Of a DNA stretch of 64,000 nucleotides, positions 18,241 to 57,025 are shown one piece after another. A program made the position numbers and the translations under genes. Positions within the stretch are counted from its first letter, which is position 1, and every line of letters starts with the position of its first letter. Source of the stretch: Anaerolineae bacterium (GTDB taxonomy: Bacteria; Chloroflexota; Anaerolineae; Epilineales; JAHCIE01); contig DAOUDG010000031.1 of the NCBI GenBank assembly GCA_034431435.1, positions 3,905 through 67,904 on the forward strand, read 5' to 3'. The notes below the pieces were generated by a model. It was not told where the DNA came from, did not search any database, and saw nothing but the letters and a program-made list of their open reading frames with translations.

Positions 18241-18303
18241 CCTTGGCCGGGTGAAGGTTTCACCACGCAAGCGAAATGGGTCGATTTTGGAGCGCGCCAG
18301 TCA

Positions 18304-18332
18304 TTGACATGGCGCGCTTTGTGTCGTATACT
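18304..18332 (+). promoter_or_regulatory. Consensus sigma70/SigA-type promoter (TTGACA-17 nt-TATACT) in an AT-rich leader
   Basis: TTGACA at 18304..18309, 17-nt spacer, TATACT at 18327..18332, about 90 nt upstream of the regulator gene start at 18424. Short TGGTA/TACCA and TAAC repeats follow. Confidence 0.45.
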
Positions 18333-18423
18333 GCATCATGCCGCTTGTGGTAACGATAACATGGTAAGTGTACCAGTGTAGTCCTTTCATCGCCCTTCGC
18401 TTCGACGCCAGGACCTGGCCGCG

Positions 18424-20556
18424 ATGCCCACCATAAGCGATGTCGCGAAACGAGCCGGCGTAGCCCCCATCACCGTCTCGCGCGTTCTCAACGGCGCGGA
18501 GAACGTGAACCCCGCCACGCGGCACAAGGTCGAGCAGGCTATCCAGGACCTGGGGTATCTACCCAACCTGGCCGCCCGCAGCCTGCGCTCCGGCCAGACG
18601 CGCACCCTGGCCCTGCTAGTCCCCGATATCGGCAACCCCTTCTGGCCCATCGTCGCGCGCGGTATCGAAGACGCCGCGCAGAGCGAGGGCTACTCCATCT
18701 TCCTCTGCAACACCGACGAGAATCCCGCCAAGCAGTTGAACTATCTGCGCGCCGTGCTGCAGCAGCGCGTCGATGGCGTCATCCTTGCCCCCTGCGACCC
18801 CGACGCTCAGAGCCTCCAGCCGCTGCGCGAGCAAGGCACGCCCACTGTCATCATCGACCGCCGCGTCGATGGCTGGGATGTGGATTCCGTGGTCGCCGAC
18901 TCGGTGTCTGGCGCTCGCGCCCTGGTCCAGCACCTGCTAAACCTGGGGCATACCCGCATCGCCATCCTGACCGGCCCCCCCGGCGTGAGTACGGCTGAAG
19001 ACCGCGTGATCGGCTATCGGCTGGCGTTGCACGACGCGGGTCTTGAGGTCGATACGCGCCTCATTCGCTGGGGCGAGTATCGCATCGCCTCCGGCTCTCA
19101 GCAGGCTCAGGCCATTTTGGACGAGGGGCTGGCGCCCACCGCCATCTTCACCGCCAACCAGGCCATCGCCCTGGGCGCGCTGGATGCGCTGACGGCGCGT
19201 GGCCTGGACGTGCCACGCGATGTGGCCCTGGTCAGCTTCGACGACCTGCCCGACGTGGATCACCTGTTTCCATTCCTGACCGTCGTGGCGCAGTCGGCCT
19301 ACGACATGGGGCTGAATGCGGCGCAACTGCTGCTGAGCCGCATGAGCGCGGGTGTTGCCCTCGAGCCGCGCCACGTCGTGCTGCCTACGCGCCTGATCCT
19401 GCGCTACTCGTGCGGGCGCACACTCCGCACCAACGAGGCCGAGGGCTACCGTCTGGTGCGCCCGCGAGATGTCCCCGTGCAGTCGGTGCTGGTAAAGCCC
19501 CTGACGCCGGCTGAGCATGAACGAGCCGCCGCCCTGGTGCCCGAAACGGCGTGGTCCGGCCTGGCGCAGCGCAATGCCATGACCGATACGGATCGCTCCA
19601 GCGTCCGCCGCCTGCGTCGCGCGCTGCAACACCAGGCGACAGACCGCGTACCTTGCCTCGCCTACCCCATCGCCCAGCGCGCGCTGGTCGAATCCGTACT
19701 GGGCCGGAGCGCGCCGGCCGCCGTCAACGGCAGCGCGTCGTCGATTGCGCCCGGCGACCAGGTCGAGTTTGCCCAGCGCCTCGGCCTGGATGCGATAGGC
19801 TGCGACCTGACGTCTCACCTCGAGCCAGGCGCGACACGGGCCGATCTGGTCACACCACCGCGCCTGGCGGATCAACTCAGCCGGCTTGAGAACTATCTGC
19901 GCGCGGCACAACGTACCGAAGTGGGCGTTTTCGCCGAGCTTGGCGCGCATCTGCCCTCCGACGCAGGGGAGGCGCTGGCCGGACATGAGTGGCTCGACGT
20001 GGTATTGGCCCACCAGGAGAAGGTACTGCGTGCGGTGTGCGATCGCTTCGCCGCTGACCTCGTCTTTGTCATGCTCGACAGTACCGTCCTGGGACCGCAC
20101 CCACCAAGCATTCACGCCCCCTCTTTCGCCAACGAGATTCTGCCGCGCCTGCGCCGCCTGATTCAGCCGGCGCGCGAACACGGCCTGCCGGTCGGGCTGC
20201 GCGTGCGCGGGCCAATCGACGGCGACCTGGCGGCGGTGAGGGAAGCGGGCTTCGAGGTGCTTGCCCTCAGTGACGCCGACCTCGCGACATTGGCGGCCAT
20301 CAAGCGCACCTGGGGCGACACACTCACTCTGGTGGGCGGCGTGCCCACCGGCCTGCTGGTGACAGGATCGCGTGAGGCCATCGAGGCGCAGGTGCGTGAG
20401 GCCTGCCTGGCTCTGGGCGCTGGCGGCGGCTTCGTGCTCAGCCCATCCGACGGCGTGCCCGAAGCAGCGAGCGCCGACAATTTTGTGGCGCTCGTCCGCG
20501 CCGCGTGGCGCTGGGGGAGAGAGAGCAGCGACTCGGGGGTGGAGATTGGGAACTAG
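18424..20556 (+). CDS. LacI-family transcriptional regulator fused to a C-terminal UroD-like domain
   Basis: Single 710-aa ORF. Residues 1-~330: HTH (ISDVAKRAGVAPITVSRVLNG) plus periplasmic-binding-fold sugar sensor. Residues ~360-710: (beta/alpha)8 UroD/MtaA-like features (TDRVPCL..., ...FVLSPSDGVPE..., C-terminal FVALVRAAW). Confidence 0.7.
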   Translation: MPTISDVAKRAGVAPITVSRVLNGAENVNPATRHKVEQAIQDLGYLPNLAARSLRSGQTRTLALLVPDIGNPFWPIVARGIEDAAQSEGYSIFLCNTDENPAKQLNYLRAVLQQRVDGVILAPCDPDAQSLQPLREQGTPTVIIDRRVDGWDVDSVVADSVSGARALVQHLLNLGHTRIAILTGPPGVSTAEDRVIGYRLALHDAGLEVDTRLIRWGEYRIASGSQQAQAILDEGLAPTAIFTANQAIALGALDALTARGLDVPRDVALVSFDDLPDVDHLFPFLTVVAQSAYDMGLNAAQLLLSRMSAGVALEPRHVVLPTRLILRYSCGRTLRTNEAEGYRLVRPRDVPVQSVLVKPLTPAEHERAAALVPETAWSGLAQRNAMTDTDRSSVRRLRRALQHQATDRVPCLAYPIAQRALVESVLGRSAPAAVNGSASSIAPGDQVEFAQRLGLDAIGCDLTSHLEPGATRADLVTPPRLADQLSRLENYLRAAQRTEVGVFAELGAHLPSDAGEALAGHEWLDVVLAHQEKVLRAVCDRFAADLVFVMLDSTVLGPHPPSIHAPSFANEILPRLRRLIQPAREHGLPVGLRVRGPIDGDLAAVREAGFEVLALSDADLATLAAIKRTWGDTLTLVGGVPTGLLVTGSREAIEAQVREACLALGAGGGFVLSPSDGVPEAASADNFVALVRAAWRWGRESSDSGVEIGN

Positions 20557-20626
20557 CTCAATCTCATTCCCGCTCCCTCGGAACGGGTCAGAGGGTCAGG
20601 GTGGGGGTCTTCGCTCAGGAGGGGCT

Positions 20627-21559
20627 GTGAATTATCGAGCGTTGGGGAACACAGGCCTGGAGGTGTCGGCGCTGAGCTTTGGCGCATCGTCGTTAGGTAG
20701 CGTCTTCCGCGACATCGACGAAGCCGAGGGCATCCGCACTGTCCACGCCGCCATCGACCTGGGCATCAACCTCATCGATGTGTCGCCCTACTACGGTCTG
20801 ACGAAGGCCGAGACAGTGCTGGGCAAGGCGCTGCGCAGCCTACCGCGTGACCGCTACATCGTGGCGACGAAGGTCGGGCGCTACGGCGACGACGACTTCG
20901 ACTTCTCGGCGGCGCGAGTCACAGCCAGCGTTGATGAGAGCCTGGCGCGGTTGGGCAGCGACCATATCGACATCATCCAGTGCCACGATATCGAGTTCGG
21001 CTCGCTGGCCCAGGTGGTGGAGGAAACACTGCCCGCCCTGCGCCGCCTGCAAGAACAGGGCAAAGTGCGCCACGTAGGCGTGACCGGCCTGCCCCTGGGT
21101 ATCTTCACCTACGTCCTGGATCGCACACCCCTGGATACCATCCTGTCCTACTGCCATTATGAGTTGAATGACACCTCCCTGGCCGACATGCTGCCCTATC
21201 TCCAGGCTAAAGGCGTCGGCATCATCAACGCCTCCCCGTTGGGTATGGGGCTACTGACGGAGCGCGGCACGCCCACCTGGCACCCCGCGCCCGACGAGGT
21301 CAAGGCCGCCTGTGCCCAGGCGGCGGCCTACTGCCGGGCGCAGGGTGTCGACATTGCCCGGCTGGCCATCCAGTTTAGCGTCGCCAACCCCGATATCCCC
21401 ACCACGCTGGTGGGCACAGCCAGCCCGGCAAACCTGGAGAAGAACGTCCGCTGGAGCGAAGACCCGATGGACCTGGGCCTGCTGGCCGAGGTGCAGGCCA
21501 TTCTCGCGCCCATCCACAATCGTACCTGGCCCACCGGTCGCCCGGAGAACAACCCATGA
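20627..21559 (+). CDS. Aldo/keto reductase family oxidoreductase (L-galactose/L-fucose-dehydrogenase-like)
   Basis: GTG 20627 with GGAGG 5 nt upstream; start uncertain (the track ORF opens at 20372). AKR motifs ...[18 protein letters not shown]..., IDVSPYYG, catalytic-tetrad context. Confidence 0.75.
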
Positions 21560-23094
21560 AGGAGCCGCCTATGGGGGATGTGCTGGTTTCGATGGTCGGC
21601 ATCGACAAGAGCTTTCCGGGTGTCCACGCCCTGAATCAGTGCCAGTTCGAGATGCGCTCCGGCGAGGTTCACGCTCTCGTGGGCGAGAACGGCGCGGGCA
21701 AGTCGACACTGATGAAGATTCTGGCCGGCATCTATCGCAAGGATGCCGGGACCATCCTCTACAAGGGCAAGGAGGTGGACATCGCCTCGCCCCGTGCCGC
21801 CCAAGACCTGGGCATCAGCATGATTCACCAGGAACTCAACCTGATGAACCATCTGACGGTGGCCCAGAATATCTTTATCGGCCGCGAGCCGCGCCGCCTG
21901 GGTCTGCTGGACGACAAGGCCATCAACGCCCAGGCGCAGACCCTCTTCGAGACGATGCGTCTCAACCTGGACCCGCGCGTCAGGGTCGCCGATCTCACCG
22001 TCGCCAAGCAGCAGATGGTGGAAATCGCCAAGGCGCTGTCCTTCAACTCCGATGTGCTCATCATGGACGAGCCGACGGCCGCGCTCACCGATGTCGAGAT
22101 CGACGACCTGTTCCGCATCATCCGCGACCTGCGGGCGCGGGGCGTCGGCATCGTCCACATCTCCCACCGCCTGGAAGAGTTGAAGCAGATCTCCGACCGG
22201 GTCACTGTCATGCGCGATGGGCGCTACATCGACACCGTGCCAACCCAGGCGACGACGACCGACCAGATTATCAGCATGATGGTCGGCCGCACCATCTTCG
22301 AGGCAACGCCGGAGGTCCCCGAGCATCCCAGCGAGGAGATCGTCCTGGAAGCCCGCCACCTCAACCGTGGCCGCGCCCTCAAGGACGTCAGCTTTAGCCT
22401 CAAGAAGGGTGAGATTCTGGGCTTCGCGGGGCTGGTCGGCGCCGGCCGCACCGAGGTCGCCCGCGCCCTGTTCGGGGCGGACCCACTGGACTCGGGCGAG
22501 ATTCTCATCCACGGCCAGCGCGTCAATATCCACAGTCCGCAAGATGCCGTGCGTCACGGTATCGCCTACCTGTCGGAGGACCGCAAGCGTTATGGCCTCG
22601 CGCTCAAGATGGACGTCGAGACCAATGTGGCCCTGGCGACGATGCGCCAGTTCATGCGGCTGTTGGGCGTCATCGATACAGCCAAGACGCGCTCGACGGC
22701 CCAGCACTACGTGGATGCTCTCGCCATCAAGACGCCCAGCATCCAGCAAAAGGTAGCCAACCTGTCAGGCGGCAACCAGCAGAAGGTGATCATCGGCAAG
22801 TGGCTGACCGCCGACACCGAGATTCTAATCTTCGACGAGCCGACGCGCGGCATCGATGTCGGCGCCAAGAGCGAAATCTACCGCCTGCTAAACGACCTGG
22901 CCCAGCAGGGCAAGTCCATCATCATGATCTCGTCGGAGTTGCCTGAGATTCTGCGCATGAGCCACCGCATCATCGTGATGTGCGAGGGACGCATCACCGG
23001 CGAGCTTGCCAGCGCCGAAGCCACCCAAGAGAGCATCATGCGCTTCGCTACCCAGCGCGCCCCCGTCGCGGCCAACGAGCCAGCCACCGCCTAG
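21556..23094 (+). CDS. Sugar ABC transporter ATP-binding protein, CUT2 family (tandem ATPase domains)
   Basis: 512 aa with two Walker A/B sets ([12 protein letters not shown] ... second domain [16 protein letters not shown]); RbsA/MglA/RhaT-like. Confidence 0.9.
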
Positions 23095-23117
23095 TAGCCA
23101 AGGGAGACCCACCACCT

Positions 23118-24113
23118 ATGCAAGCTCAAGCGCCCGCCGTTCAATCCAAGTCGCTGTTCCGCTCGGACGCTATGCAACGCCTTCTGGCCTTCGGCGCGCT
23201 CATCGTGCTGTTCATCGTCTTCTCACTGTTGTCGCCCAACTTCCTCCAGTTCGACAACATCGTCGGTATCCTGCTGGCGACCTCGGTCAACGGCATCCTC
23301 GCCCTGGGCGTGACTTTCGTCATCATCAGCGGCGGCATCGACCTGTCGGTGGGCACGGTCATGACGCTATCGGCGGTCATGACCGGCGTCTTCATCACCA
23401 TGTGGGGATTGCCCATCCCCCTAGGCATCCTGGCCGGGCTGGGCACGGGCGCGTTGTGCGGCCTCGTCAACGGTACGGTCATCTCGCGCATGAAGATCCC
23501 GCCCTTCATCGCCACGCTGGGCATGTTCTACATCTCGCGCGGCCTGGCGCTCATCTTCTCCGGGCTGAAGCCCGTCTACTTCAACGACACGCCCATCTTC
23601 CGCGACCTCGCCATGGGTTCGGTGCTGGGTGCGATCGTCCCCGGCTTCGATATCCCCAACGCCGTGCTCATCATGTTCGGCGCGGCCCTGGTCGCTGCGT
23701 TCATCTTGAACCGCACCGTGTTGGGCCGCTACACCTTCGCCATCGGCAGCAATGAGGAAGCCACCCGCCTGTCGGGCGTCAACGTCGCCTTCTGGAAGAC
23801 GTCCATCTACGCCCTGTGTAGCGCGTTCGCGGGCCTGGGCGGCGTCGTCATCGCCTCGCGCCTCAACTCCGCTCAGCCATCCCTCGGCGCGGGCTACGAG
23901 TTGGACGCCATCGCCGCCGCCGTCATCGGCGGCACGTCGCTGAGCGGTGGTGAGGGAACAATCCTGGGTACGGTTATCGGCGCGTTCCTCATCAGCACCC
24001 TCACCAATGGCCTGCGCATCCTGTCGGTGCCCCAGGAATGGCAGATTGTCGTGACAGGCTGTATCCTGATCCTGGCCGTCTTCCTGGACATCCTCCGCCG
24101 CCGGCAGCGCTGA
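23118..24113 (+). CDS. Sugar ABC transporter permease, CUT2 family (RbsC-like)
   Basis: ATG 23118 after AGGGAG. ~10 TM; motif GGIDLSVGTVM. Confidence 0.85.
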   Translation: MQAQAPAVQSKSLFRSDAMQRLLAFGALIVLFIVFSLLSPNFLQFDNIVGILLATSVNGILALGVTFVIISGGIDLSVGTVMTLSAVMTGVFITMWGLPIPLGILAGLGTGALCGLVNGTVISRMKIPPFIATLGMFYISRGLALIFSGLKPVYFNDTPIFRDLAMGSVLGAIVPGFDIPNAVLIMFGAALVAAFILNRTVLGRYTFAIGSNEEATRLSGVNVAFWKTSIYALCSAFAGLGGVVIASRLNSAQPSLGAGYELDAIAAAVIGGTSLSGGEGTILGTVIGAFLISTLTNGLRILSVPQEWQIVVTGCILILAVFLDILRRRQR

Positions 24114-24207
24114 GCCTGGCGGGGCAGCCTTCCCACGTTTGTTAGCTCCATCGTGGAGCTTGACAATGTCCTCACCACTAGAACGAAGAGGAGAAAGGAC
24201 GCTCGGT

Positions 24208-25251
24208 ATGAAATCCCTAAGATTCGTTGTCGTTCTTGCCAGCCTGGTGGCCATCCTGGCCCTACTGGCGGCATGCACGCCAACACAGCAAGCCGCGGTC
24301 GAGAAGGCCGCGCCCACCGTCGCCGCCGCTGCCAAGGCCGCCGCGCCCACTGTGGCCGCCGCCGCTGCCGCCAAGACCGGCGACATGTACATCCCGGTCA
24401 TCTCGAAGGGCTTCCAGCACCAATTCTGGCAGGCGGTGAAGCAAGGCTCGGAGAAGGCGGCTAAGGACCTCGGCGTCCGCATCACCTTCGAAGGCCCAGA
24501 GAACGAGTCCCAGGTCGACAAGCAGATTGAGATGCTCCAGGCGGCCATCGACAAGAAGCCCGCCGCCATCTGCTTCGCCGCGCTGGACTCCAAGGCCGCC
24601 ATCCCGCTGTTGGAGAAGGCCAAGGCCGCCAACATTCCGGTGATCGGCTTCGACTCCGGCGTCGATAGCGACATCGTCAAGACGACGGCCGCCACGGACA
24701 ACATCGCCGCCGCCGCCGCCGCCGCCGACAAGATGGCCGCGCTGATCAATAACGAGGGCGAGATCGCGGTCATCGTCCACGACCAGACCAGCCGCACCGG
24801 CATCGACCGCCGCGACGGCTTCGTCAACCGCATCAAGGAGAAGTACCCCAACATCAAGATCGTCGACATCCAGTACGGCGGCGGCGACCAGCTCAAGTCT
24901 ACCGACCTGGCCAAGGCGATTCTCCAGGCCCGCCCCAACCTCAAGGGCTTCTTTGGCGCGAACGAGGGGTCCATCATCGGTGTCCTCAATGCCGTCAAGG
25001 AACTGAAGAGGGAAGGCAAGGTCGTGGTCATTGGCTACGACTCTGGCAAGCAGCAGATCGACGCCATCAAGGCAGGGACTGAGGCCGGCGCCATCACCCA
25101 GGACCCGATCGGCATCGGCTACAAGTGCGTCGAGGCCGCTGTCAAGGCCGTCAAGGGCGAAACACTGCCCAAGACCATCGACACTGGCTTCCACTGGTAC
25201 GACAAGACCAACGTCGACTCCGACCAGATCAAGCCACTGCTGTACAACTAG
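24208..25251 (+). CDS. Sugar ABC transporter substrate-binding lipoprotein, CUT2 family
   Basis: ATG 24208 after GAGGAGAAAGG. Lipobox LLAAC, Ala/Pro-rich linker, periplasmic-binding-protein type I fold (IGFDSG, VVVIGYDSG). Confidence 0.85.
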   Translation: MKSLRFVVVLASLVAILALLAACTPTQQAAVEKAAPTVAAAAKAAAPTVAAAAAAKTGDMYIPVISKGFQHQFWQAVKQGSEKAAKDLGVRITFEGPENESQVDKQIEMLQAAIDKKPAAICFAALDSKAAIPLLEKAKAANIPVIGFDSGVDSDIVKTTAATDNIAAAAAAADKMAALINNEGEIAVIVHDQTSRTGIDRRDGFVNRIKEKYPNIKIVDIQYGGGDQLKSTDLAKAILQARPNLKGFFGANEGSIIGVLNAVKELKREGKVVVIGYDSGKQQIDAIKAGTEAGAITQDPIGIGYKCVEAAVKAVKGETLPKTIDTGFHWYDKTNVDSDQIKPLLYN

Positions 25252-25338
25252 CGGGCGTCGCCCAGCCCGACAGGCGAAAGAGGGGCTGGCCACTCTGGAC
25301 AGCCTCTCTTCCCTGGCGGGGAGTAAGGAGACTCGCGG

Positions 25339-26172
25339 GTGCGCATCGACTCCCATCAGCATTTCTGGCGCTATAATCGAACCGAATATGACTGGATGCG
25401 TGACGCTCTGGCGAACCTGCAACGCGATTTCCTGCCGCCCGACCTGGCGCCTCTCCTGACCGCCACGGCTCTCGACGGTACGGTTGCTGTACAGGCCAGG
25501 CAAACCCTGGCCGAGACAGAGTGGTTGCTGGACCTATCGGATCGCTTCGACTTCATCAAGGGTGTTGTCGGCTGGGTCGACCTACGCTCGCCCCACGTCG
25601 ACGCGCAACTCGACCAGGTAGCGCGCCACCCCAAGCTGCGAGGAATACGCCACGTCGTCCACGACGAGCCAGACGACCGCTTCATGCTCGGCGCTGATTT
25701 CCTGGCCGGCCTCAACCAGTTGCGGGGCCTGGGACTGACCTACGATCTGCTATTGTTTCCCAGGCATCTGCCCATCGCCGTGGAAGTGGTGCGCCGCTTT
25801 CCCCACCAGCGTTTTGTGTTGGATCACATCGCCAAGCCGCCCATCAAGGACCACCGCATCGGCGCGTGGGAAAATGACTTGCGGGAACTGGCGGGCTTCG
25901 ACAACGTATTCTGCAAGGTGTCAGGCATGGTCACCGAGGCCGACTGGCAGCACTGGCAGCCGAGCGACTTCGAGCCGTACCTGGACATTGTATTCGATGC
26001 CTTTGGCGTCGAGCGGCTGATGTTTGGCTCTGACTGGCCCGTCTGCACGATCGCCGCCGACTATGAGCAGGTCGTTGGCCTGGTGGACAGCTACGTGGCT
26101 CGCCGCGCGCCCCACGCCCGCGATGCAATTTTCGGCGGCACAGCGGCGGCGGTCTATGGGTTGACCGAGTGA
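25339..26172 (+). CDS. Amidohydrolase_2 family metal-dependent hydrolase (L-fucono/L-rhamnono-1,5-lactonase-like)
   Basis: MRIDSHQHFW N-terminus, ...FVLDHIAKP..., ...MFGSDWP... typical of amidohydrolase_2 lactonases. Confidence 0.7.
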   Translation: MRIDSHQHFWRYNRTEYDWMRDALANLQRDFLPPDLAPLLTATALDGTVAVQARQTLAETEWLLDLSDRFDFIKGVVGWVDLRSPHVDAQLDQVARHPKLRGIRHVVHDEPDDRFMLGADFLAGLNQLRGLGLTYDLLLFPRHLPIAVEVVRRFPHQRFVLDHIAKPPIKDHRIGAWENDLRELAGFDNVFCKVSGMVTEADWQHWQPSDFEPYLDIVFDAFGVERLMFGSDWPVCTIAADYEQVVGLVDSYVARRAPHARDAIFGGTAAAVYGLTE

Positions 26173-26179
26173 GGATGCC

Positions 26180-27475
26180 ATGATCTCAATCGGCGTAGGC
26201 GAAGCGAAGCGTTTCCTGAGCGAGGCGGAGATTGAGCGCATCGTGGCCGAAGGGCTGGCCGCTCTGCCTTTGACCGGGCAGCGTGTGCTGGTCCTGATCC
26301 CTGACCATACCCGCACCATGCCGCTGCCCCTGTTCTTCCGCCTGCTGACACGGCATCTGGCGGGGCGAGCCAGCGCCATCGACTTCCTGGTCGCCCTGGG
26401 TACGCATCCGCCCCTGGACGACGCCAGTCTGCTCCGTCTCGTCGGCATCACCGCCGAGGAGAAAGCAACAACCTACCGCAACGTCCACGTCTACAACCAC
26501 GCCTGGGACGACCCCGCCGCGCTGACCACCCTGGGCGTCATCCCGGCCGCCGACATCGCCGCCCTCAGCCAGGGCATGCTCCGCCAGGAGGTGCCGGTAC
26601 GCCTCAACAAGCGGGTTCTCGACTACGACCACATCCTCATCTGCGGCCCGGTCTTTCCCCACGAGGTCGTTGGCTTCTCCGGCGGCAACAAGTACTTCTT
26701 CCCCGGCATTGCCGGGCCTGACATCATCGACTTCACCCACTGGCTCGGCGCGCTCATCACCTCCTACGACATCATTGGGACGCAGGACACCCCTGTGCGG
26801 CGCGTCATCGACCGCGCTGCATCCCTCATCCCCCGCCCGCGCCACGCCCTGTGTAGCGTCGTCAGCCACGACGGCGTGTCGGGCGTATTCTCCGGCACGC
26901 CCGAGGCGGCCTACGCCGCCGCCGCCGACCTGTCCGCCCAGGTCCACATCAAGTGGCTGGACCAGCCCTACCGCACCGTGCTATCCGTGCTGCCCAGCAT
27001 GTACGACGAGCTATGGGTGGGCGGCAAAGGCATGTACAAGCTGGAGCCTGTCGTCGCCGACGGCGGCGAGCTTATCATCTACGCGCCCCATATCAAGGAA
27101 ATCAGCGTGACCCACGGCGCGGCGATCCGAGCCGTCGGCTATCACGTGCGCGACTATTTCGTCAGGCAATGGGACCAGTTCCAGGGTTATCCCTGGGGCG
27201 TGCTGGCCCACTCGACCCACGTGCGCGGTGTAGGCACATACGAAAACGGCATCGAGCGCCCGCGCATCCAGGTCACCCTGGCGACGGGCATCCCCGAGGA
27301 CGAGTGCCGCGCCGTGAACCTGGGCTATCGTGACCCGGCATCTATCGACCCGTCAGCATGGGCAGGCCGCGAGGCTGAGGGCATCCTGGTCGTGCCGCGC
27401 GCGGGCGAGTATCTGTACCGACTCAAGGATAAAACCCATTCGACCGTCCCGTCCGAAATGAGGGTGAACCCATGA
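26180..27475 (+). CDS. LarA-family (DUF2088, lactate-racemase-like) protein
   Basis: 431 aa; [12 protein letters not shown] with the conserved Lys (cofactor-tethering position in LarA) and downstream His. ATGA-coupled to fucI. Confidence 0.65.
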
Positions 27476-29283
27476 CCCAGTCTGCCCCTATCCCGACCGC
27501 CTGGAGCATCGGCGGCCTGCCCAAAATTGGCATCCGCCCGGCCATCGACGGGCGACGGCGCGGCGTGCGCGAGTCCCTGGAAGCGCCAACGATGGGGATG
27601 GCCCGCGCTACGGCCGACTTCCTGAGCGCCCACCTGCGCTACCCGACGGGTCAGCCCGTCGAGTGTGTCATCGCCGACTCGTGCATTGGCGGCGTGGCGG
27701 AGGCGGCCCAGTGCGCCGAGAAGTTCGCCCGCGCCGGCGTGGGCCTGACCATTACCGTCACGCCCTGCTGGTGCTACGGCTCCGAGACGATGGACATGGA
27801 CCCACAGATGCCCACGGCGGTGTGGGGCTTCAACGGCACGGAGCGACCCGGTGCGGTCTATCTGGCCGCGGTGCTGGCCGGGCACAACCAGAAGGGGCTG
27901 CCCGCCTTCAGCATCTATGGCCACGACGTGCAGGACCTGGGCGACCCTGGCATTCCTGCCGACGTGCAGGAGAAGCTGCTGCGCTTCGCCCGCGCCGGGC
28001 TGGCCGTGGCGATGATGCGCGGCAAGTCGTACCTGTCCATCGGCGGCACATCGATGGGCATCGCCGGCTCCATCGTCGACCAGCCCTTCTTCGAGACGTA
28101 TCTCGGCATACGCGTCGAGGTCGTCGATATGAGCGAGCTGACGCGCCGCATCGATGAGAACCTCTTCGACGGGGCGGAGTATGAGCGCGCTCTGGCCTGG
28201 ACAAAGCAGAACTGCGCCGAGGGCCGCGAGTACAACCCGCCCGCCAACCAGCGCAGCCGCGAGCAGAAGGACCACGACTGGGAGACCTCGGTCAAGATGA
28301 CCCTCATCGCCCGCGACCTGATGGTCGGCAACCCGCGCCTGGCCGAGATGGGCTTCGGCGAGGAGGCGCTAGGCCGCAATGCTCTGGCAGGAGGCTTCCA
28401 GGGCCAGCGCCAGTGGACCGATCATTTCCCCAACGGCGACTTCATGGAGGCCATCCTAAACTCGTCCTTCGACTGGAACGGCATCCGCGCCCCCTATATC
28501 TTCGCCACCGAGAACGACAGTCTGAACGGCGCGACGATGCTCCTGGGGTATCTGCTGACCAACACGGCCCAGATTTTCGCCGACGTCCGCACCTTCTGGA
28601 GTCCCGAGGCGGTCAAGCGCGTGACTGGCTACACCCTGGATGGCATCGCCGCCCAGGGCATCATCCACCTCATCAACTCTGGCGCGGCTACCCTGGACGC
28701 CTCGGGCGAGCAGGAGCGCGACGGCGCGCCGGTGATGAAGCCCTACTGGGAGATTAGCCAGGCCGAGGCGGAGCGTTGTCTCAAGGCGACCACCTGGTAC
28801 CCGGCCATGACCGAGTACTTCCGGGGCGGCGGCTACTCGTCCCAGTTCCTGACGCGCGGCGAGATGCCAGTGACGATGGCTCGTATCAACATCATCAAGG
28901 GCCTGGGGCCGGTCCTTCAACTGGCCGAGGGCGTGACCGTCGACCTGCCACCCGACGTGCACCACACCATCAACGAGCGCACCAACCCAACGTGGCCGAC
29001 CCACTACTTCGTGCCACGCACCACGGGTGAGGGGCCATTCCGCGACGTGTACTCAGTCATGGCGGCCTGGGGCGCGAACCACGGCGCGATCAGCTACGGC
29101 CACATCGGGGCGGACCTGATCACGCTGGCGTCCATGCTGCGCATCCCGGTGACGATGCACAACGTCCCCAACCCGCGACTGTTCCGCCCCGCGACGTGGA
29201 ACCACTTCGGCGCGCTGGAACCGGTCGGCGCGGACTATCGCGCCTGCGCCACCTTCGGCCCGCTGTACGGCCGGTACGCGTAG
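27472..29283 (+). CDS. fucI: L-fucose isomerase (also D-arabinose isomerase family)
   Basis: 603 aa, collinear with E. coli FucI: [48 protein letters not shown]...[41 protein letters not shown]. Confidence 0.92.
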
Positions 29284-29363
29284 GGGCGTGAGGCGCGAGC
29301 TGCCTCGGCGGCCTCGCGTTTCACATGCTGGCGCGGCGTCCGCATTCCATTCTCGGCGGCCCT

Positions 29364-29396
29364 CTGGAGTGCGGGAGCACGGCCCCCGCACTCCAG
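29364..29396 (+). terminator. GC-rich hairpin (12-bp perfect stem CTGGAGTGCGGG/CCCGCACTCCAG, 9-nt loop) in the fucI-kinase intergenic region; candidate terminator or attenuator without a U-tract
   Basis: Read directly from the sequence. A second imperfect stem sits at ~29290..29317 immediately after the fucI stop, followed by TTT. Confidence 0.3.
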
Positions 29397-29418
29397 GACG
29401 ACGGGCGAGAGAGGCACG

Positions 29419-30909
29419 ATGAGCGAATCGACCGGTACAGCCTACCTGGCCTTTGACCTGGGCGCGGAGAGCGGCCGCGCTGTCCTCGGCTGGCTCGCTG
29501 ACGACGAGTTGCGCCTGGAAGAGGTGCATCGCTTCGCCAACGGCCCGGTGCGTGTAGGCGACAGCCTGCATTGGGACGTTCTGCGCCTGTGGAGCGAGGT
29601 GCAGCGCGGGCTGGCGCTGGCCGCGGCGCGGGCGGGCGACGGGCTGGCGAGCCTGGGTGTCGATACCTGGGGCGTCGACTTCGGCCTGCTGGCCGCCGAC
29701 GACAGCCTGCTTGGCAACCCACACCACTACCGCGACCCGCGTACCGACGGCATGCTGGAGGCCGCCTTCGCGGTGACGCCCCGCGATGAAATCTACCGCC
29801 AGACGGGCATCCAACTCATGCAACTGAACACCCTCTACCAGTTGCTGGCGATGGTCCGCGCCGACTCGCCCGCCCTGGCGAGCGCGCGTCACCTGCTGAT
29901 GATGCCCGACCTGCTCAACTTCTGGCTATCCGGCGTCAAGGCCAACGAGTTCACCGACGCCACCACGACACAATGCTATGACCCGCGGGGCGAAAGGTGG
30001 GCGACGGGGCTTCTGGAACGGCTCGGCATCCCAACCGGCCTGTTTGGCGACATCGTACCGCCGGGCACGGCCCTCGGCCCGCTGCGCCCCAGCGTTGCAG
30101 CCGATGCCCATTGCCCACCCGTACAGGTCATCGCCACGGCCAGCCATGACACCGCCTCGGCCGTGGCCGCCGTGCCCGCGGCGGCCACCGACTACGTGTA
30201 CATCAGCTCCGGCACGTGGTCCCTTATGGGCATCGAGTCGCCCGCGCCAGTCATCAGCGACGCCAGCCTGCGCGCCAACCTCACCAACGAGGGCGGCGTC
30301 GCTGGCACGATTCGCCTGCTCAAGAACATCATGGGCATGTGGCTCGTCCAGGAATGCCGCCGCGCCTGGGCCGCCGAGGGCAAGACCTACACCTACGATG
30401 CCCTGACCGCCCTGGCCGAGGCAGCGCCCGCCTTCGGGCCGCTCATCAACCCGTCCGACGCGCGCTATCTGGCCCCTGGCGAGATGCCCGCCCGCATCCA
30501 GGCCGCATGTCGAGAGAGCGATCAGTCTGTGCCCGACACGCCGGGCGCGCTGGTGCGCTGCGTTCTAGAGAGCCTGGCTCTGGAGTATCGCCGCGTCATC
30601 GACCTTATCGAGACGATCGTTAGCCGCCCCATGACTGCGGTCCACATCGTCGGCGGCGGCTCGCGTAATCGCCTGCTCAACCAGTTGACGGCCAACGCCA
30701 CCGGCCGCCCCGTCATCGCCGGCCCCGTCGAGGCGACGGCGACGGGCAACATCCTGGTACAGGCCATCGCGACTGGACGGCTGGCCTCGCTGCGCGAGGG
30801 CCGCGACCTGCTGCGCCGCATCGTCGAAACCACAACCTACGAGCCGCGGGACGGCGCGGCGTGGGATGCGGTGTATGAGCGCTATCTGGGGCTTGTCAGC
30901 GACCACTGA
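29419..30909 (+). CDS. FGGY-family ketose kinase, rhamnulokinase-like (RhaB-type)
   Basis: 496 aa, collinear with E. coli RhaB: FDLGA.SGR, VDTWGVDF, YRD.RT.G, NTLYQL, SSGTWSLMG, NEGG..G.IR.LKNIMG.WL.QE, IVGGGS.N.LLNQL.A.A.G.PV.AGPVEA...GN. Confidence 0.8.
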   Translation: MSESTGTAYLAFDLGAESGRAVLGWLADDELRLEEVHRFANGPVRVGDSLHWDVLRLWSEVQRGLALAAARAGDGLASLGVDTWGVDFGLLAADDSLLGNPHHYRDPRTDGMLEAAFAVTPRDEIYRQTGIQLMQLNTLYQLLAMVRADSPALASARHLLMMPDLLNFWLSGVKANEFTDATTTQCYDPRGERWATGLLERLGIPTGLFGDIVPPGTALGPLRPSVAADAHCPPVQVIATASHDTASAVAAVPAAATDYVYISSGTWSLMGIESPAPVISDASLRANLTNEGGVAGTIRLLKNIMGMWLVQECRRAWAAEGKTYTYDALTALAEAAPAFGPLINPSDARYLAPGEMPARIQAACRESDQSVPDTPGALVRCVLESLALEYRRVIDLIETIVSRPMTAVHIVGGGSRNRLLNQLTANATGRPVIAGPVEATATGNILVQAIATGRLASLREGRDLLRRIVETTTYEPRDGAAWDAVYERYLGLVSDH

Positions 30910-30988
30910 CCCAGGGCAAGGGGCCAGCGACCAACCGGGACGAGCCTGACTACTCGCCTTTGGTCACTCGCCCGCGAAGGGAGACCGT

Positions 30989-32335
30989 GTGGATAGCGTC
31001 ACTACCGACCTGGAAGCCAAACTCAATGACCTGTCGTTCCAGCAGCGGCTCGAAGCCCTGGCGGAACTGGCGCGGCGGGCCAGGCTGTCCGATACGCCCC
31101 GCCCGGCTGAGACCGAGCGGGTCAACATGCACTGTCACAGCCTCTACTCGTATAACGCCTACGGCTACTCGCCGGCCGCCCTGGCCTGGCTGGCCTATCA
31201 GCGCGGCTGGCGCGCCATTGGCCTGGTCGACTTCGACGTGCTGGACGGCGTGGATGAGTTCCTCGATGCCTGCGACCTGCTCGGCGTGCGTGGCGCGGCC
31301 GCCCTGGAAACGCGCACCTTCCTGCCCCCGTTCGCCGACCGCGAGATCAACTCGCCGGGCGAGCCGGGTGTGTTGTATCACATGGGCCTCGGCTTCAGCA
31401 GCAGCCGGGTCCCCGACGCTGCTGGCAGCGCCCTGGCCGACCTGCGCACCCGCGCCACGCGCCGCAACCGCGACATGATCGCGCGCCTGAACCGCTACCT
31501 CGACCCGGTTACCGTCGACTACGACACCGACGTACTGACCATGACGCCTTCAGGCAATGCGACGGAGCGACACATGCTCGTCGCCTACGTGCGCGCCGCC
31601 GAAGCGCAGACGCCCAACCCGACCGCCTTCTGGGCTGACCGGCTCGACTTACCCGGCGACAAGGTCGCCACGCTGATGGAGAACCCGGCGCAGTTCCAGA
31701 ATACGCTACGCGCCAGGCTGATGAAGCGCGGCGGTGTGGGCTACGAGCAGCCCGGCCCCGACACTTTCCCGCCCTTCGCCGAGGTGCAACGCCTCATCCT
31801 GGCCTGCGGCGCGCTGCCGTGCTACGCCTTCCTCGACGGCACATCCAGCGGCGAGCAGGCGCTGGGCGAGCTGGTGGGGCTGCTGGTGGACCACGGTACG
31901 GTGGCCGTGAACATTATTCCCGATCGTAACTGGAACATCGCCGACGCCGCGACCAAGGCGGTCAAGCTGCAACGCCTGCATGACCTGGCGCGGCTGGCCG
32001 ACGACCTGGCGCTGCCTTTCAACATTGGCACCGAGATGAACAGCCCCGGCCAACGGCTGGTGGACGACCTGGACGCGCCCGAACTGGCGTCGCTACGCCA
32101 GGCCTTCCTCGACGGCGCGTACTTCGTCTACGGCCATACCGTGTTACAACGCGCCCTGGGTCTGGGCTACCAGAGCGACTGGGCGCGGGACTGTCTCCCT
32201 GAGCGACGCGCGCGGAACGCCTTCTACACCCAGGTCGGCCGGGCCGTTCCACCCGGTCGCGCGGGCCTGGCCCAACTCCAGGCATTGGATGCTTCCATGT
32301 CGCCATCAGACCTATTAGCGAGGTTGAGCCTATGA
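30989..32335 (+). CDS. PHP-domain (polymerase/histidinol-phosphatase-like) metal-dependent phosphoesterase family protein, function unknown
   Basis: GTG 30989 after AGGGAG. N-terminal PHP motif VNMHCHSLYS...IGLVDFD; 448 aa with no further family assignment. Confidence 0.5.
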   Translation: MDSVTTDLEAKLNDLSFQQRLEALAELARRARLSDTPRPAETERVNMHCHSLYSYNAYGYSPAALAWLAYQRGWRAIGLVDFDVLDGVDEFLDACDLLGVRGAAALETRTFLPPFADREINSPGEPGVLYHMGLGFSSSRVPDAAGSALADLRTRATRRNRDMIARLNRYLDPVTVDYDTDVLTMTPSGNATERHMLVAYVRAAEAQTPNPTAFWADRLDLPGDKVATLMENPAQFQNTLRARLMKRGGVGYEQPGPDTFPPFAEVQRLILACGALPCYAFLDGTSSGEQALGELVGLLVDHGTVAVNIIPDRNWNIADAATKAVKLQRLHDLARLADDLALPFNIGTEMNSPGQRLVDDLDAPELASLRQAFLDGAYFVYGHTVLQRALGLGYQSDWARDCLPERRARNAFYTQVGRAVPPGRAGLAQLQALDASMSPSDLLARLSL

Positions 32336-34071
32336 GCGTCACTACCTTGAAGCGCGACAAACTGGATGAGTATAAGCGCGCCGACGCGCCGCTGCCCGAG
32401 CACAATGTTGTGTGGCCTACCTACGGCGCAGGCTTCGAGAACTTCGGTCGTGACGAACGGCCCATCGAGACGCCGCTGCCTCCCGCCGGCGCCGATGAAC
32501 TGATCGTCCGCCATGACGCCTGCGGCCTGTGCTTCTCCGACATCAAGATTATCTCCCTCGGTGAGCAGCACCCGCGCATCTTCCGCGACATCCGCCAGGA
32601 GCCGGTCGTCCAGGGCCACGAGGTCGCCATGACCGTCGTCCAGGTCGGCGACGATCTGCGCGACCAATACCACGTCGGCGACCGCTTCATCATCCAGGCG
32701 GACATCTTCAAGGACGGCGTCGGCTACGCCTACGGCTACATGATCGACGGCGGGCTGTCGCTATACGGGCGCATCGACCAGCGCATCCTCAACGGTGACG
32801 GCGGCAACTATCTGATTCCCATCCAGCCGCGCGACGGGTACGCCGAAACGGCCCTGGCCGAACCGTGGGCGTGTGTCATCGCCGCCTACGAGCTGACCTA
32901 TCGCAGCGGGTTGAAGCCCGGCGGCACGACCTGGATCGTGGGCACGGGCGCGAGCGGCACGGCGTACACTATCAGCGCCGGCTTCGACGCGGCGAGTCAC
33001 CCGGCGCGGCTGCTGCTGACCGACGTACCGCCGGCCTTTGCGGCCTGGCTTCGGGAGCGCGCCGCCGCCCTCGGCGTCGAGGTGCTGGATGCGCCGGACG
33101 TGACTGCGCCGCCGGTCACTCCCAGCGACGACATCGTGCTACTCGCCACGACCGCCGATCTGGTGGAGACGGTCAGCCCGCATCTGGCCGACTTCGGCAT
33201 CGTTGCCCTGCTGGGCAACACGCCCCTCGACCGACCGGCCCAGGTGGACATTGGCCGCGTCCACTATAACCGCTGGACCTACGTCGGCGGGCGGGGAACC
33301 GACGTGGCGCGCGCCTACAGCGACCTGCCGGTGCGCGCCGCGCTGCGGCCGGGCGGGCGCGCCTGGTTCATCGGCGCGGGTGGGCCGATGGGACGCATGC
33401 ACGTCCAGCGCGCCCTGCAAAGCCCGCAACCGCCCGCCATCATCGTCTGCACGGACATGGGCGACGTGCGCCTCCAGGCCCTGCGCGACACCTTCGCCGG
33501 GGAGGCAGCGGCGCGCGGCATCGAGTTCGTGTGCATCAATCCGGCGCATCGCGGCGCCGCCGCAGCCGAGCAGGAGATGGACCATTTCAGGGCGGAAGGC
33601 TTCGACGACATTGTCGTCCTGGCCCCCGCGCCGGCCGCCATCGCCGACGCGGCCAACTGGCTCGCGCCCCAGGGTGTGATGAACATCTTCGCGGGCGTGG
33701 CGCGCGGCGTGACGACCCGGCTGGACCTGAGTGCGGTGTATCTACGGGACGTGCGCTTCATCGGCCACTCAGCATCGGACATCGATGACCTGCGCCTGAC
33801 GCTCCACAAGGTCGAGACGGCCGAGTTGTCGCCCAACCGCTCCGTGGCGGCTATCGGCTCATTGAGCGCGGCGCGCGACGGGCTGATCGCCGTGCGCGAC
33901 AGCGTCTTCCCCGGCAAGGTAGTCATCTACCCGCACATCACGGACTTGCCGCTAACGCCACTGGCCGACCTGAAGGATCGCCTGCCGACCGTGTACGCGA
34001 AACTCAAGGATGGTCGCGAGTGGACCATCGAGGCCGAGGAAGAGTTGCTGCGCGTGATGCTACCAGAGTGA
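32332..34071 (+). CDS. Zn-dependent medium-chain dehydrogenase/reductase (polyol or polyol-phosphate dehydrogenase-like) with long C-terminal extension
   Basis: ATGA overlap with the upstream gene. GroES-like domain (CGLCFSDIK, GHEVAMTVVQVGDD) plus Rossmann domains; 579 aa is ~200 aa longer than typical MDRs. Confidence 0.7.
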   Translation: MSVTTLKRDKLDEYKRADAPLPEHNVVWPTYGAGFENFGRDERPIETPLPPAGADELIVRHDACGLCFSDIKIISLGEQHPRIFRDIRQEPVVQGHEVAMTVVQVGDDLRDQYHVGDRFIIQADIFKDGVGYAYGYMIDGGLSLYGRIDQRILNGDGGNYLIPIQPRDGYAETALAEPWACVIAAYELTYRSGLKPGGTTWIVGTGASGTAYTISAGFDAASHPARLLLTDVPPAFAAWLRERAAALGVEVLDAPDVTAPPVTPSDDIVLLATTADLVETVSPHLADFGIVALLGNTPLDRPAQVDIGRVHYNRWTYVGGRGTDVARAYSDLPVRAALRPGGRAWFIGAGGPMGRMHVQRALQSPQPPAIIVCTDMGDVRLQALRDTFAGEAAARGIEFVCINPAHRGAAAAEQEMDHFRAEGFDDIVVLAPAPAAIADAANWLAPQGVMNIFAGVARGVTTRLDLSAVYLRDVRFIGHSASDIDDLRLTLHKVETAELSPNRSVAAIGSLSAARDGLIAVRDSVFPGKVVIYPHITDLPLTPLADLKDRLPTVYAKLKDGREWTIEAEEELLRVMLPE

Positions 34072-34086
34072 TGAGGTAACACATCC

Positions 34087-34887
34087 ATGATGCTTCCAGA
34101 TAGAGTCGCCATTGTCACCGGCGGCGCGCAGGGGTTGGGCGAAGCCCTCTGCCAGCGCCTGGCCCGCGAGGGCTGCCACGTTGTCGTGGCCGACATCAAC
34201 GCCGAGCAGGCCGCCGCCACTGCCGACGGCATTACCACCGCCGCGCGCGCCACCGGCTCCGACCGCCGCGCCATTGGCGTCAAGGTCGACGTCACGAGTG
34301 AAGAGCAGGTCGCCGCCCTGGTCGACCGCGCCGTCGCCGAGTTTGGCCGTCTCGATGTGCTGGTGTCCAATGCGGGCATCCTCATCGCCGAGGACATTAC
34401 CGACTTCCCCGCCGACAAGTGGCAGGCCGTGATGATGGTCAATCTCTACGGCTACTTCCTGTGTGCCAAGCACGCCGCGCGGGTGATGAAGCCGCAAGGT
34501 AAGGGCGTCATCATCCAGATCAACTCCAAGTCGGGCAAGAAGGGCAGCTTCAAGAACTCCGCCTACGCGGCCTCCAAGTTCGGCGGCATCGGCCTCACCC
34601 AGAGCATCGCCCTCGACCTGGCCGAGCATGGCGTGCGCGTCAACGCTGTCTGCCCCGGCAACCTGCTCGACTCGCCCTTGTGGGTCAACTCGCTTTACAA
34701 GCAGTATGCCCGGAAGTGGGGCATCACCGAGGCCGAGGTACGCCAGCGCTACATCGACCAGGTTCCCATGAAGCGCGGCTGCACCTACGACGACGTCTGC
34801 AATGTGGTCGCCTTCCTGGCCTCCGACCAGGCCAGCTACATGACCGGCCAGGCCATCAACGTGACCGGCGGCCAGGAGATGCGCTAA
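34087..34887 (+). CDS. Short-chain dehydrogenase, sorbitol-6-phosphate 2-dehydrogenase (SrlD)-like
   Basis: 266 aa; [67 protein letters not shown]. Close motif-by-motif resemblance to SrlD. Confidence 0.8.
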
Positions 34888-34897
34888 GCGAGACCGT

Positions 34898-36217
34898 ATG
34901 CCAATCGCTGTCATTCTGCCCAAGCTGGGCAACACCGTCGAGAGTTCCATTATCGCCCGCTGGCTCAAGCGACCCGGCGAGACCGTCGCCGAAGGCGAGC
35001 CACTGGTGGAGATCGAGACCGACAAGAGCAGCCTTGAGGTAAACAGCCCCGCCGCGGGCGTCCTCCTCGACACGTTCTTCGGCCCAGGCGACGACGTGCC
35101 CGTGCTGACCACCATCGCCGCCATCGGCCAGCCGGGCGAGGAGGCGGCTTCCCTTCGCCCGCGTGACGCGGCGACACCCGCCACCCCTGCCCCCCCTCCG
35201 GCTCCCCCCGTCGACCATGGGAAGGGGGAGGAGGGAATCAGTGAGGTCTTCGTCTCGCCACGCGCGCGGCGGCTGGCCGAGCACAAGGGGCTGGCCGTGG
35301 CGGACCTGACGGGTAGCGGCCCCGGCGGGCGCATCATCGAGCGCGACGTGCAGGCCGCCCTCGCCGCCCGACCGCGTCTGACGCCCCTGGCGCGCGCCCT
35401 GGTCGAGAAGGGCGGCTTCACCCCGCCCGCCGACGCCGCCGGCCGCGTCACCAGCCGCGACCTTACGCCACCCACCGCGACGGCCTCCGCGCCTGGCATA
35501 GCCGGGCCAACCCAGGCCGTCGCCGAGTACGAAGATATACCGCTCAGCAACGTGCGCCGCCTCATCGCCGAGCGCATGCTGGCCTCCTTGCAGACCACGG
35601 CCCAGCTGACCCTCAACGCCTCGGCCGACGCCCGCCAGGTGCAGGCCCTCCGCCAGCGGCTCAAGGCCAGCCCCGAGGCCCTCGGCCTGCGCGAGGTGAC
35701 GGTCAACGATCTGGTGCTGTTCGCCGTCAGCCGCACCTTGACCCGCTTCCCCGACCTCAACGCCCTCTTCCTGGACAAGAGTCTGCGCCGCTTCACGCCG
35801 GTTCACCTCGGCTTCGCTGTGGACACGCCGCGCGGCCTGCTCGTACCCGTCATCCGTCATGCCGACAGCCTCAGCCTGCGCGCCCTGTCCCAGGCGGCGC
35901 GGCGGCTGGCCCAGGCGGCGCAAGACGGCAAGGCCACCCCCGACGACCTCAGCGGCGGCACGTTCACCGTGACCAACCTGGGCAGCCTCGGCATCGAGAG
36001 CTTCACGCCGGTGCTCAACCCGCCCCAGGTCGCCATCCTCGGCGTGGGATCCATTCAATTGAAGCCCGTCGACGCCGACGGCGAGGTGCAGTTCATCCCA
36101 CACCTGGGCCTGTCCCTGACCATCAACCACCAGGTTGTAGACGGCGCGCCGGGCGCGCGCTTCCTGCACGCCGTGACCCAGGCCATAGCCAGCCTGGACT
36201 TGCTATTGGCGACGTGA
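34898..36217 (+). CDS. 2-oxoacid/acetoin dehydrogenase complex E2 (dihydrolipoamide acyltransferase), single lipoyl domain
   Basis: Lipoyl motif [13 protein letters not shown]3/E1-binding domain ([32 protein letters not shown]), catalytic domain ending ...[15 protein letters not shown]. Confidence 0.85.
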
Positions 36218-36283
36218 TACGCGGGTGGTCACATGGCCGCCCGCGACCCCGATTGGCCCGTCGATCATTGCCCCAGAGGAACT

Positions 36284-38734: not shown

Positions 38735-38820
38735 GTTGGTAGCCACGCAGGGCAGGGCCTCGCCCCTGCCCTCTTGACGGAAGAATGGGACACGGACGAA
38801 CACACAATGAGGTGGAACTC

Positions 38821-55118: not shown

Positions 55119-56576
<1,458 letters not shown>

Positions 56577-56597
56577 TGCCGCAGCGAGGAGCCAGCA

Positions 56598-57017: not shown

Positions 57018-57025
57018 ACCAGCCT

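Follow-up and report, generated by a model that had tools for sequence, protein, structure and literature searches.

A nickel-pincer epimerase homolog of the GntE clade embedded in a fucose-type operon of an Anaerolineae bacterium

In this study, we analyzed a LarA-family gene in a stretch of 64,000 nucleotides from an Anaerolineae bacterium (GenBank assembly GCA_034431435.1, contig DAOUDG010000031.1, positions 3,905 to 67,904 of the forward strand). This whole stretch is referred to below as the window, and its own numbering is used for all gene coordinates. The product of the gene, here called LarAH (LarA homolog), is predicted to be an intact, functional aldonate C2-epimerase that depends on the nickel-pincer nucleotide (NPN), and its sequence places it as a nested member of the characterized GntE (D-gluconate/D-mannonate 2-epimerase) clade. 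The gene lies between a fuconolactonase homolog and the L-fucose isomerase gene fucI, as the first-pass annotation of this DNA had described from the open reading frames (ORFs) and as Pfam and NCBIfam agree, and this fucose-operon context is rare and recently derived. The genes that carry the argument are:

26180..27475, + strand: LarAH, 431 aa, ATG start (Pfam Lar_N, 5.1e-22)
25339..26172, + strand: Amidohydro_2 (cog3618-type) sugar lactonase of the L-fucono-1,5-lactonase family, 277 aa, GTG start (Pfam Amidohydro_2, 8.7e-48)
27472..29283, + strand: L-fucose isomerase FucI, 603 aa (three Pfam FucI domains; NCBIfam PRK10991)
20627..21559, + strand: aldo-keto reductase (AKR) of the L-galactose (L-fucose) 1-dehydrogenase type, 310 aa (PDB 9W6Y match)

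Family and clade assignment

LarAH belongs to the LarA superfamily: it carries the Lar_N (DUF2088) domain, and the top 17 Foldseek matches of its predicted model (pLDDT 76.5) are all LarA-family structures. The first of these is PDB 4NAR (E 7.7e-32, TM 0.77-0.79, 34% identity), which is also the closest PDB entry by sequence (E 9.7e-71, 242 bits) and represents Thermotoga maritima GntE2 (Q9WYS3, LarAH group 20), an NPN-dependent D-gluconate/D-mannonate 2-epimerase (Desguin et al. 2020, PMC7583248). The two proteins share the residues R41/K164/H180 of GntE2 (R45/K171/H187 in LarAH), a Glu after the second catalytic His, a Gly before the catalytic Lys (G286 in GntE2, G282 in LarAH) and the GntE-type insertion after residue 115. 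They differ in that only about one-third of their residues are identical and in that LarAH is found with fucI and a fuconolactonase gene, not with hexuronate/gluconate genes.

A four-residue rule distinguishes GntE enzymes, with E, V, A and H at the positions of LarA F175, F176, W358 and T359 (Urdiain-Arraiza et al. 2024, PMC11770544), and LarAH carries this signature in full as E162, V163, A343 and H344. Compared with Lactiplantibacillus plantarum LarA (5HUQ), LarAH has the same fold and keeps D72, R75, H108, H174, K184, H200 and K298, but the match amounts to 27 bits and the pocket residues F175/F176/W358/T359 are exchanged for E/V/A/H. The lactate racemase model NF033504 (Ni_dep_LarA) gives 61.2 bits against a cutoff of 460, and LarAH is not a lactate racemase.

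Among curated models, the best NCBIfam score comes from NPN_18_hexonate (NF052594, LarAH group 18), at 174.2 bits against a cutoff of 500. LarAH groups 18-20 have common loop and helix signatures (PMC7583248), and the GntEs make up groups 19 and 20. Because the score falls far below the cutoff, and because P0105, a paralog from a GntE context that is described below, scores nearly the same (186 bits), LarAH is not a member of group 18; the NCBIfam library apparently holds no model that claims its GntE group. The first-pass annotation had treated LarAH as an unclassified DUF2088 protein, a description that must be revised, since by sequence it falls within a characterized clade and is not an orphan.

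Catalytic residues and selection

Residue equivalents were taken from a HMMER alignment to L. plantarum LarA (8EZF/5HUQ numbering). All seven cofactor and catalytic residues of LarA are kept in LarAH and are invariant across 36 homologs: D72, R75, H108 and H174 correspond to D42, R45, H76 and H161, and K184, H200 and K298 to K171, H187 and K283. The cofactor-binding set (R45, the thioamide tether K171 and the nickel ligand H187) is therefore present together with both catalytic histidines and the D72/K298 equivalents. The GFSGGNK motif, whose Lys is residue 171, is followed by FTH(187)W, just as the first reading of the sequence had noted, and the alignment pairs His108/Lys184/His200 with H76/K171/H187 without the loss of any His. 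The codons are located as follows:

26405-26407, + strand: H76
26660-26662, + strand: H161
26690-26692, + strand: K171 (cofactor tether)
26738-26740, + strand: H187 (Ni ligand)
27026-27028, + strand: K283

As both catalytic histidines are present, LarAH is of the two-histidine type, unlike the single-His (Asn) proteins of PMC12611868. Among the three orthologs (the window protein and those of loci L011 and L012, 94% and 87% identical), dN/dS is 0.099-0.139, which indicates that LarAH is under purifying selection and is a functional gene. The catalytically competent appearance claimed for the protein is thus borne out at the level of sequence, by complete catalytic and cofactor residues and a dN/dS of 0.10-0.14.

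Homologs, genomic context and a paralog

Relatives of LarAH were sought in one genome per species, which yielded 538, and the 80 closest loci were analyzed with up to 10 kb of flank per side; contexts were labelled by local tblastn with the operon proteins of the window and with uronate-locus proteins. Many metagenome contigs encode the exact LarAH protein, one of them a 151,574-bp contig of JGI 3300006092. Among the 80 loci, the lactonase/fucI context is found only in L011 (Anaerolineae bacterium TGS_CHL1) and L012 (an uncultured Anaerolineales metagenome-assembled genome, MAG). Of the remaining 78 loci, whose LarAHs are at most 77% identical, 48 have at least one member of a set formed by a short-chain dehydrogenase/reductase (SDR), UxaC, 6-phosphogluconate dehydrogenase (6PGD) and PfkB; in the other 30, many of them on short contigs, none of the query genes was detected. 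The SDR upstream of the GntE-context orthologs is a D-mannonate oxidoreductase by score (288.5 bits against a cutoff of 281).

The Chloroflexota GntE-type LarAHs in these UxaC-UxuB-LarAH-6PGD-PfkB loci resemble the window protein in sequence (69-77% identity), in active-site motifs and in the E-V/A-H signature; they differ in lacking the extensions of about 12 N-terminal and about 13 C-terminal residues that only the window protein and its two orthologs have. In a neighbor-joining (NJ) tree of 80 sequences, built without bootstrap, the three fucose-context LarAHs form one clade that lacks a long stem and is nested among the Chloroflexota GntE-context sequences, and with the context labels added, its place is among sequences linked to UxaC, mannonate oxidoreductase, 6PGD and a kinase.

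A paralog of LarAH, P0105 (73% identical), is encoded in MAG GCA_905338865.1 (Thermoflexales bacterium) and very probably sits on the same contig, in the same genome, as the window LarAH. Its locus runs URO-D, corrinoid protein, URO-D, UxaC, SDR, LarAH, 6PGD, PfkB, and corresponds to the T. maritima-type pathway, which leads from hexuronate by way of mannonate and gluconate to 6-phosphogluconate. The hexuronate/gluconate context expected of a GntE therefore belongs to the P0105 locus; at the window locus, the neighbors of LarAH are the fuconolactonase, fucI, an FGGY kinase and a sugar ABC transporter. We considered whether the window gene arose by a recent in-genome duplication of the uronate-locus GntE, which is not supported, as the window clade groups with the sequences of L032, L021 and L030 and not with P0105; as the NJ tree has no bootstrap, this grouping is weak.

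A side observation concerns the genes around such uronate loci. In L007 (4683-13866), very probably about 37 kb beyond the window start, URO-D, a B12-binding corrinoid protein and a second URO-D lie directly upstream of UxaC, SDR, a GntE-type LarAH, 6PGD and PfkB, and this arrangement of URO-D/corrinoid and uronate genes is kept in several Thermoflexales/Anaerolineae loci (L014, L016, L024 and L039). The set looks like a corrinoid-dependent O-demethylase tied to hexuronate catabolism, possibly for 4-O-methyl-glucuronate.

Gene junctions and the oxidative branch

The window has a GC content of about 66%, and its + strand bears a densely packed run of genes. Read from the sequence, the TGA of the lactonase gene is followed by 7 nt containing a Shine-Dalgarno-like AGGA and then by the ATG of LarAH, and the LarAH stop and the fucI start overlap by 4 nt (ATGA), an overlap that recurs in the ortholog locus L012 and agrees with the translational coupling to fucI first suggested for this gene. 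FucI itself scores 1073 bits against the cutoff of 775 of the NCBIfam L-fucose isomerase model (PRK10991). A promoter-like site (18304-18332, 11/12 match in a promoter scan) lies ahead of the first gene of the run, which encodes a LacI-URO-D protein, and on the + strand no terminator-like site was found in 18000-31200. The genes around the central four are:

18424..20556, + strand: LacI-family regulator with a C-terminal URO-D/MtaA-like domain, 710 aa (Pfam LacI, Peripla_BP and URO-D)
21571..25251, + strand: sugar ABC transporter, whole (Pfam ABC_tran, BPD_transp_2, Peripla_BP_4)
21571-23094, + strand: ABC ATPase
23118-24113, + strand: permease
24208-25251, + strand: substrate-binding protein (SBP)
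29419..30909, + strand: FGGY kinase, rhamnulokinase-like, a probable L-fuculokinase (NCBIfam rhamnulo_kin, 492 bits against a cutoff of 528)
30989..40494, + strand: downstream operon block, with the following five rows and the ribulokinase
30989-32335, + strand: PHP-fold protein
32332-34071, + strand: long protein similar to medium-chain dehydrogenases/reductases and alcohol dehydrogenases (MDR/ADH-like)
34087-34887, + strand: SDR
34898-36217, + strand: E2
36284-38734, + strand: fused E1 alpha-beta
~38830-40494, + strand: ribulokinase, the last gene of the block

The AKR gene lies 3.8 kb upstream of the lactonase gene, with the three ABC-transporter genes in between. Its product gives 410 bits (E 4.6e-122) to PDB 9W6Y, "L-galactose dehydrogenase", and 346-373 bits to other PDB L-galactose dehydrogenase structures, including the plant enzyme L-GalDH, so that the AKR seen in the neighborhood in the first reading can now be assigned to the L-galactose/L-fucose dehydrogenase type. 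We also considered an NPN-dependent AKR of the NphT type (Nat Chem 2026), in which case the lactonase would have received its substrate from lactone-forming sugar disproportionation. This assignment was rejected on account of the score to NphT (9YEB) of 52 bits, against 410 to L-galactose dehydrogenase, and of the presence of the AKR in operons that have no LarAH.

The lactonase is homologous over its full length to PDB 4DLF/4DO7 (221 bits, E 1.5e-64), which we take to be the L-fucono-1,5-lactonase BmulJ_04915 of Burkholderia multivorans (Hobbs et al. 2013). Its sole NCBIfam match is L-fucono-1,5-lactonase (FuconLaconase), at 287.6 bits, yet below the equivalog cutoff of 400, so that the sugar-acid lactonase proposed as a neighbor of LarAH holds as a putative fuconolactonase. 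BmulJ_04915 works with a fuconate dehydratase pathway in B. multivorans, and that pathway is absent here. Of three contexts of lactonase orthologs, two (L092 and L093) place the gene, 64-65% identical, beside alpha-L-fucosidase and a sugar dehydrogenase, while the third (L091) has no sugar-related neighbor. With an AKR of the L-galactose/L-fucose dehydrogenase type and this lactonase, an oxidative route to L-fuconate/L-galactonate is encoded in the operon upstream of LarAH, and the predicted activities (aldose 1-dehydrogenase, lactonase and 2-epimerase) would form the row of three that had been proposed at the outset.

Operon history

Through homologs of the 448-aa downstream gene, which bears no annotation, we reached an equivalent operon with the same gene order in three Anaerolineae loci (L094, L095 and L100). 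The common order is LacI, AKR, ABC ATPase, permease, SBP, a variable slot, FucI, FGGY kinase and the 448-aa protein, followed by the long ADH-like protein, SDR, E2, fused E1 alpha-beta and ribulokinase. In these three loci, the slot holds a 129-aa gene of the RbsD/FucU family (NCBIfam D-ribose pyranase 91.6, L-fucose mutarotase 30), whereas in the window lineage, that is, the window organism and two sister species, it holds the lactonase and LarAH. Proteins of the FucU-type operons are 60-87% identical to those of the window, with 85-86% for the SBP; the near-identity of the SBP argues that both operon types import the same sugar. With near-identical SBPs and a LarAH clade that descends from ancestors in GntE context, replacement is the simplest reading, and the lactonase and LarAH most likely took the place of the pyranase/mutarotase gene in a pre-existing fucose-type operon.

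Two features of this region may be recorded separately. The lactonase gene has a third-position GC of 0.78, compared with 0.84-0.89 in its neighbors, and its product is 80-87% identical among the three sister species, compared with 92-99% for SBP and FucI; both values would fit a gene that was acquired later or separately, or one whose evolution is relaxed or adaptive. The LacI-URO-D fusion, with a URO-D/MtaA-like part of about 350 aa, is called as a single 710-aa gene on independent contigs and recurs in L012, whereas the FucU-type operon regulator has 347 aa, lacks the URO-D domain and aligns to the window regulator over the LacI half only (47-48% identity). The idea that the uronate locus, through its URO-D genes, had supplied this domain was discarded, since the two have no BLASTP similarity.

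Proposed role and alternatives

By family inference, NPN would be tethered to K171, with its nickel ligated by H187, and would accept the C2 hydride of a 2-hydroxy acid as either H76 or H161 deprotonates its hydroxyl group. Delivery of the hydride to the opposite face of the 2-keto intermediate, with the proton given back by the other His, would complete the reaction. Within the operon, the AKR would oxidize the imported sugar to a lactone, the lactonase would open the lactone, and LarAH would invert C2 of the resulting aldonate, converting L-fuconate to 6-deoxy-L-talonate, L-galactonate to L-talonate, or D-arabinonate to D-ribonate. That LarAH acts on the operon's own aldonate has, in our judgment, slightly less than an even chance. 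The more specific proposal, in which a GntE-clade enzyme was recruited with the fuconolactonase for a 6-deoxy or L-series aldonate (L-fuconate to 6-deoxy-L-talonate or L-galactonate to L-talonate), is doubtful. The analysis establishes the family, the intact catalytic residues, the purifying selection and the gene order with its history, and infers both the substrate and what becomes of the product. The first-pass annotation had suggested epimerization of a deoxy-sugar acid, which is plausible, as the lactonase/AKR context fits, although the sequence lends no support to an altered specificity.

Several observations weigh against this proposal. The clues to the substrate diverge, with the context pointing to L-fuconate/L-galactonate and the active site to D-mannonate/D-gluconate, because the two pairs of sugar acids differ in tail stereochemistry at C3 and C5. 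We screened for clade-specific residues by comparing the three fucose-context proteins with 118 homologs at positions conserved to at least 85%, and only three conserved positions are replaced (E125D, A282G and L348V), all of them conservatively. Two of these replacements are seen elsewhere, G282 corresponding to G286 of T. maritima GntE2 and V348 recurring in P0036, which lies outside the window clade; otherwise, the loop after H161, the K283 helix and the A343-H344 region do not differ from their counterparts in the uronate-pathway orthologs. A clade-specific change of specificity was therefore rejected, there being no sign of a remodelled pocket, and the predicted active site of LarAH is indistinguishable from that of uronate-pathway GntE orthologs. 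With the GntE signature intact and no clade-specific active-site substitution, nothing in the sequence speaks positively for a shift towards deoxy-sugar acids. The characterized GntEs are reported to be narrow in their substrate range, as judged on a panel without 6-deoxy and L-series hexonates (PMC11770544). Moreover, no obvious consumer of 6-deoxy-L-talonate or L-talonate is recognizable in the operon, the FucU-type operons do without the epimerase, and the genes for cofactor synthesis, larB, larC and larE, were found neither in the ~74 kb around LarAH nor near its paralog.

The alternative that survives best is that LarAH is a second GntE, which still interconverts D-mannonate and D-gluconate. 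Its place in the fucose operon would then reflect either a neutral rearrangement or a function in some hexonate route that has nothing to do with fuconate, such as one with mannonate obtained from an oxidized hexose or from L-galactonate via tagaturonate/fructuronate. The E162-V163/A343-H344 signature, the lack of a unique active-site substitution and of a long branch in the NJ tree, and the 69-77% identity to many orthologs of the UxaC-UxuB-LarAH-6PGD-PfkB context, with their upstream SDR that scores as a D-mannonate oxidoreductase, all agree with it. Against this, a complete uronate locus with a GntE of its own very probably exists in the organism already, on the same contig; fructuronate reductase, UxaC and gluconate kinase/6PGD are not adjacent to LarAH; and purifying selection, together with tight coupling to the lactonase gene and fucI in three species, argues for a role within the operon. 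We regard this explanation as a serious possibility that stays short of probable. If LarAH is an ordinary GntE, it is a routine paralog in an unusual place.

A different use of the cofactor, in which NPN oxidizes an aldonate to a 2-keto acid for the products of the downstream, 2-oxoacid-dehydrogenase-like E1/E2 genes or shuttles hydride between molecules as NphT does, is very improbable. An E2 and a fused E1 alpha-beta are encoded in the same operon, and hydride shuttling is possible for NPN enzymes, as the unrelated NphT demonstrates (PMC13524815), but LarAH has both catalytic histidines, as in all proven racemases/epimerases, and other chemistry has been proposed for single-His LarAHs only (PMC12611868, PMC13524815). 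The E1/E2 genes are also found in FucU-type operons without LarAH and hence do not depend on it.

Should LarAH act on the operon's own 6-deoxy or L-series aldonate after all, the catabolism of L-fucose/L-galactose would gain its first NPN-dependent reaction, and the GntE pocket would accept aldonates that differ at C3 and C5 without any visible change in the active site; in the LarA-family papers cited here, no superfamily member has yet been linked to aldonates of deoxy sugars or of the L series. New 2-hydroxyacid racemases/epimerases are being sought in the LarA superfamily, and the locus offers a natural experiment in which a GntE-type enzyme has left the uronate pathway and become fixed between a fuconolactonase gene and fucI in three species, while a canonical GntE is very probably kept elsewhere in the genome. 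The paralog pair bears on whether the signature residues set specificity or GntEs are broader than reported.

Cofactor biosynthesis genes

The supply of NPN is likewise inferred. Within the window, Pfam detected no LarB, LarC or LarE among ~45 coding ORFs, and neither did tblastn seeded with LarB/LarC/LarE of two plasmid lar operons (L098 and L099) and one Verrucomicrobial LarE, which agrees with the absence first reported for the neighborhood; the 10 kb beyond the window start and the 21 kb around P0105 (gene table and tblastn) likewise hold none. A search of 1.52 Mb of loci by motif regex and tblastn recovered LarE only, in L061 and L074, where it lies 4-5 kb upstream of a GntE-type LarAH and gives a family-level link to the cofactor. 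LarE is accordingly present in 2 of the 80 closest loci and LarB or LarC is detectable in none, and because lar genes are seldom found near LarAH in this clade, their local lack says little and is nothing unusual. An inactive apoprotein or non-catalytic paralog in an organism that cannot make NPN, which the missing lar genes in these regions might suggest, is scarcely credible, given a dN/dS of 0.10-0.14, invariant cofactor and catalytic residues, two LarAH paralogs kept in what is very probably one genome, and the rarity of adjoining lar genes throughout the clade.

One locus combines such genes differently. On the Paenibacillus cellulositrophicus megaplasmid NZ_CP045296.1 (L098, 2500-9044), uxaC, a "lactate racemase domain-containing protein" gene, an SDR gene, larE, larB and a split larC stand together. 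As BLASTP finds no significant similarity between its LarA-domain protein and the window LarAH, we did not use this locus as a link between GntE and lar genes, and it appears to represent a second, very different LarA-like lineage linked to uronate and cofactor genes.

Other genes of the operon and window

The Anaerolineae fucose-type operon (18424-40494 of the window, + strand; L094, L095 and L100) has no class II aldolase (FucA). The PHP-fold, phosphoesterase-like protein has no Pfam match, and its AlphaFold2 model (pLDDT 88) resembles 2YB1 / RNase AM in Foldseek. The MDR/ADH-like protein, of 579 aa, apparently carries two Rossmann-type glycine motifs as read from the sequence; the SDR is sorbitol-6-P dehydrogenase-like, the E2 is a lipoyl acyltransferase, and the fused E1 alpha-beta, of 816 aa, scores under all pyruvate dehydrogenase cutoffs. 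The operon may encode an undescribed thiamine pyrophosphate (TPP)/lipoyl-dependent route for a 6-deoxyhexose or its lactaldehyde product. A more distant locus (L101) has a PHP-like gene together with FucI, alpha-L-fucosidase, RhaA and a class II aldolase, and since the long ADH-like protein has no similarity to that aldolase, the idea that it is an ADH-aldolase fusion hiding the missing FucA was rejected.

Elsewhere in the window (55119-58963, + strand), genes for the large and small subunits of form I RuBisCO, a CbbX-like AAA ATPase and phosphoribulokinase stand in a row, which indicates a Calvin-cycle module.

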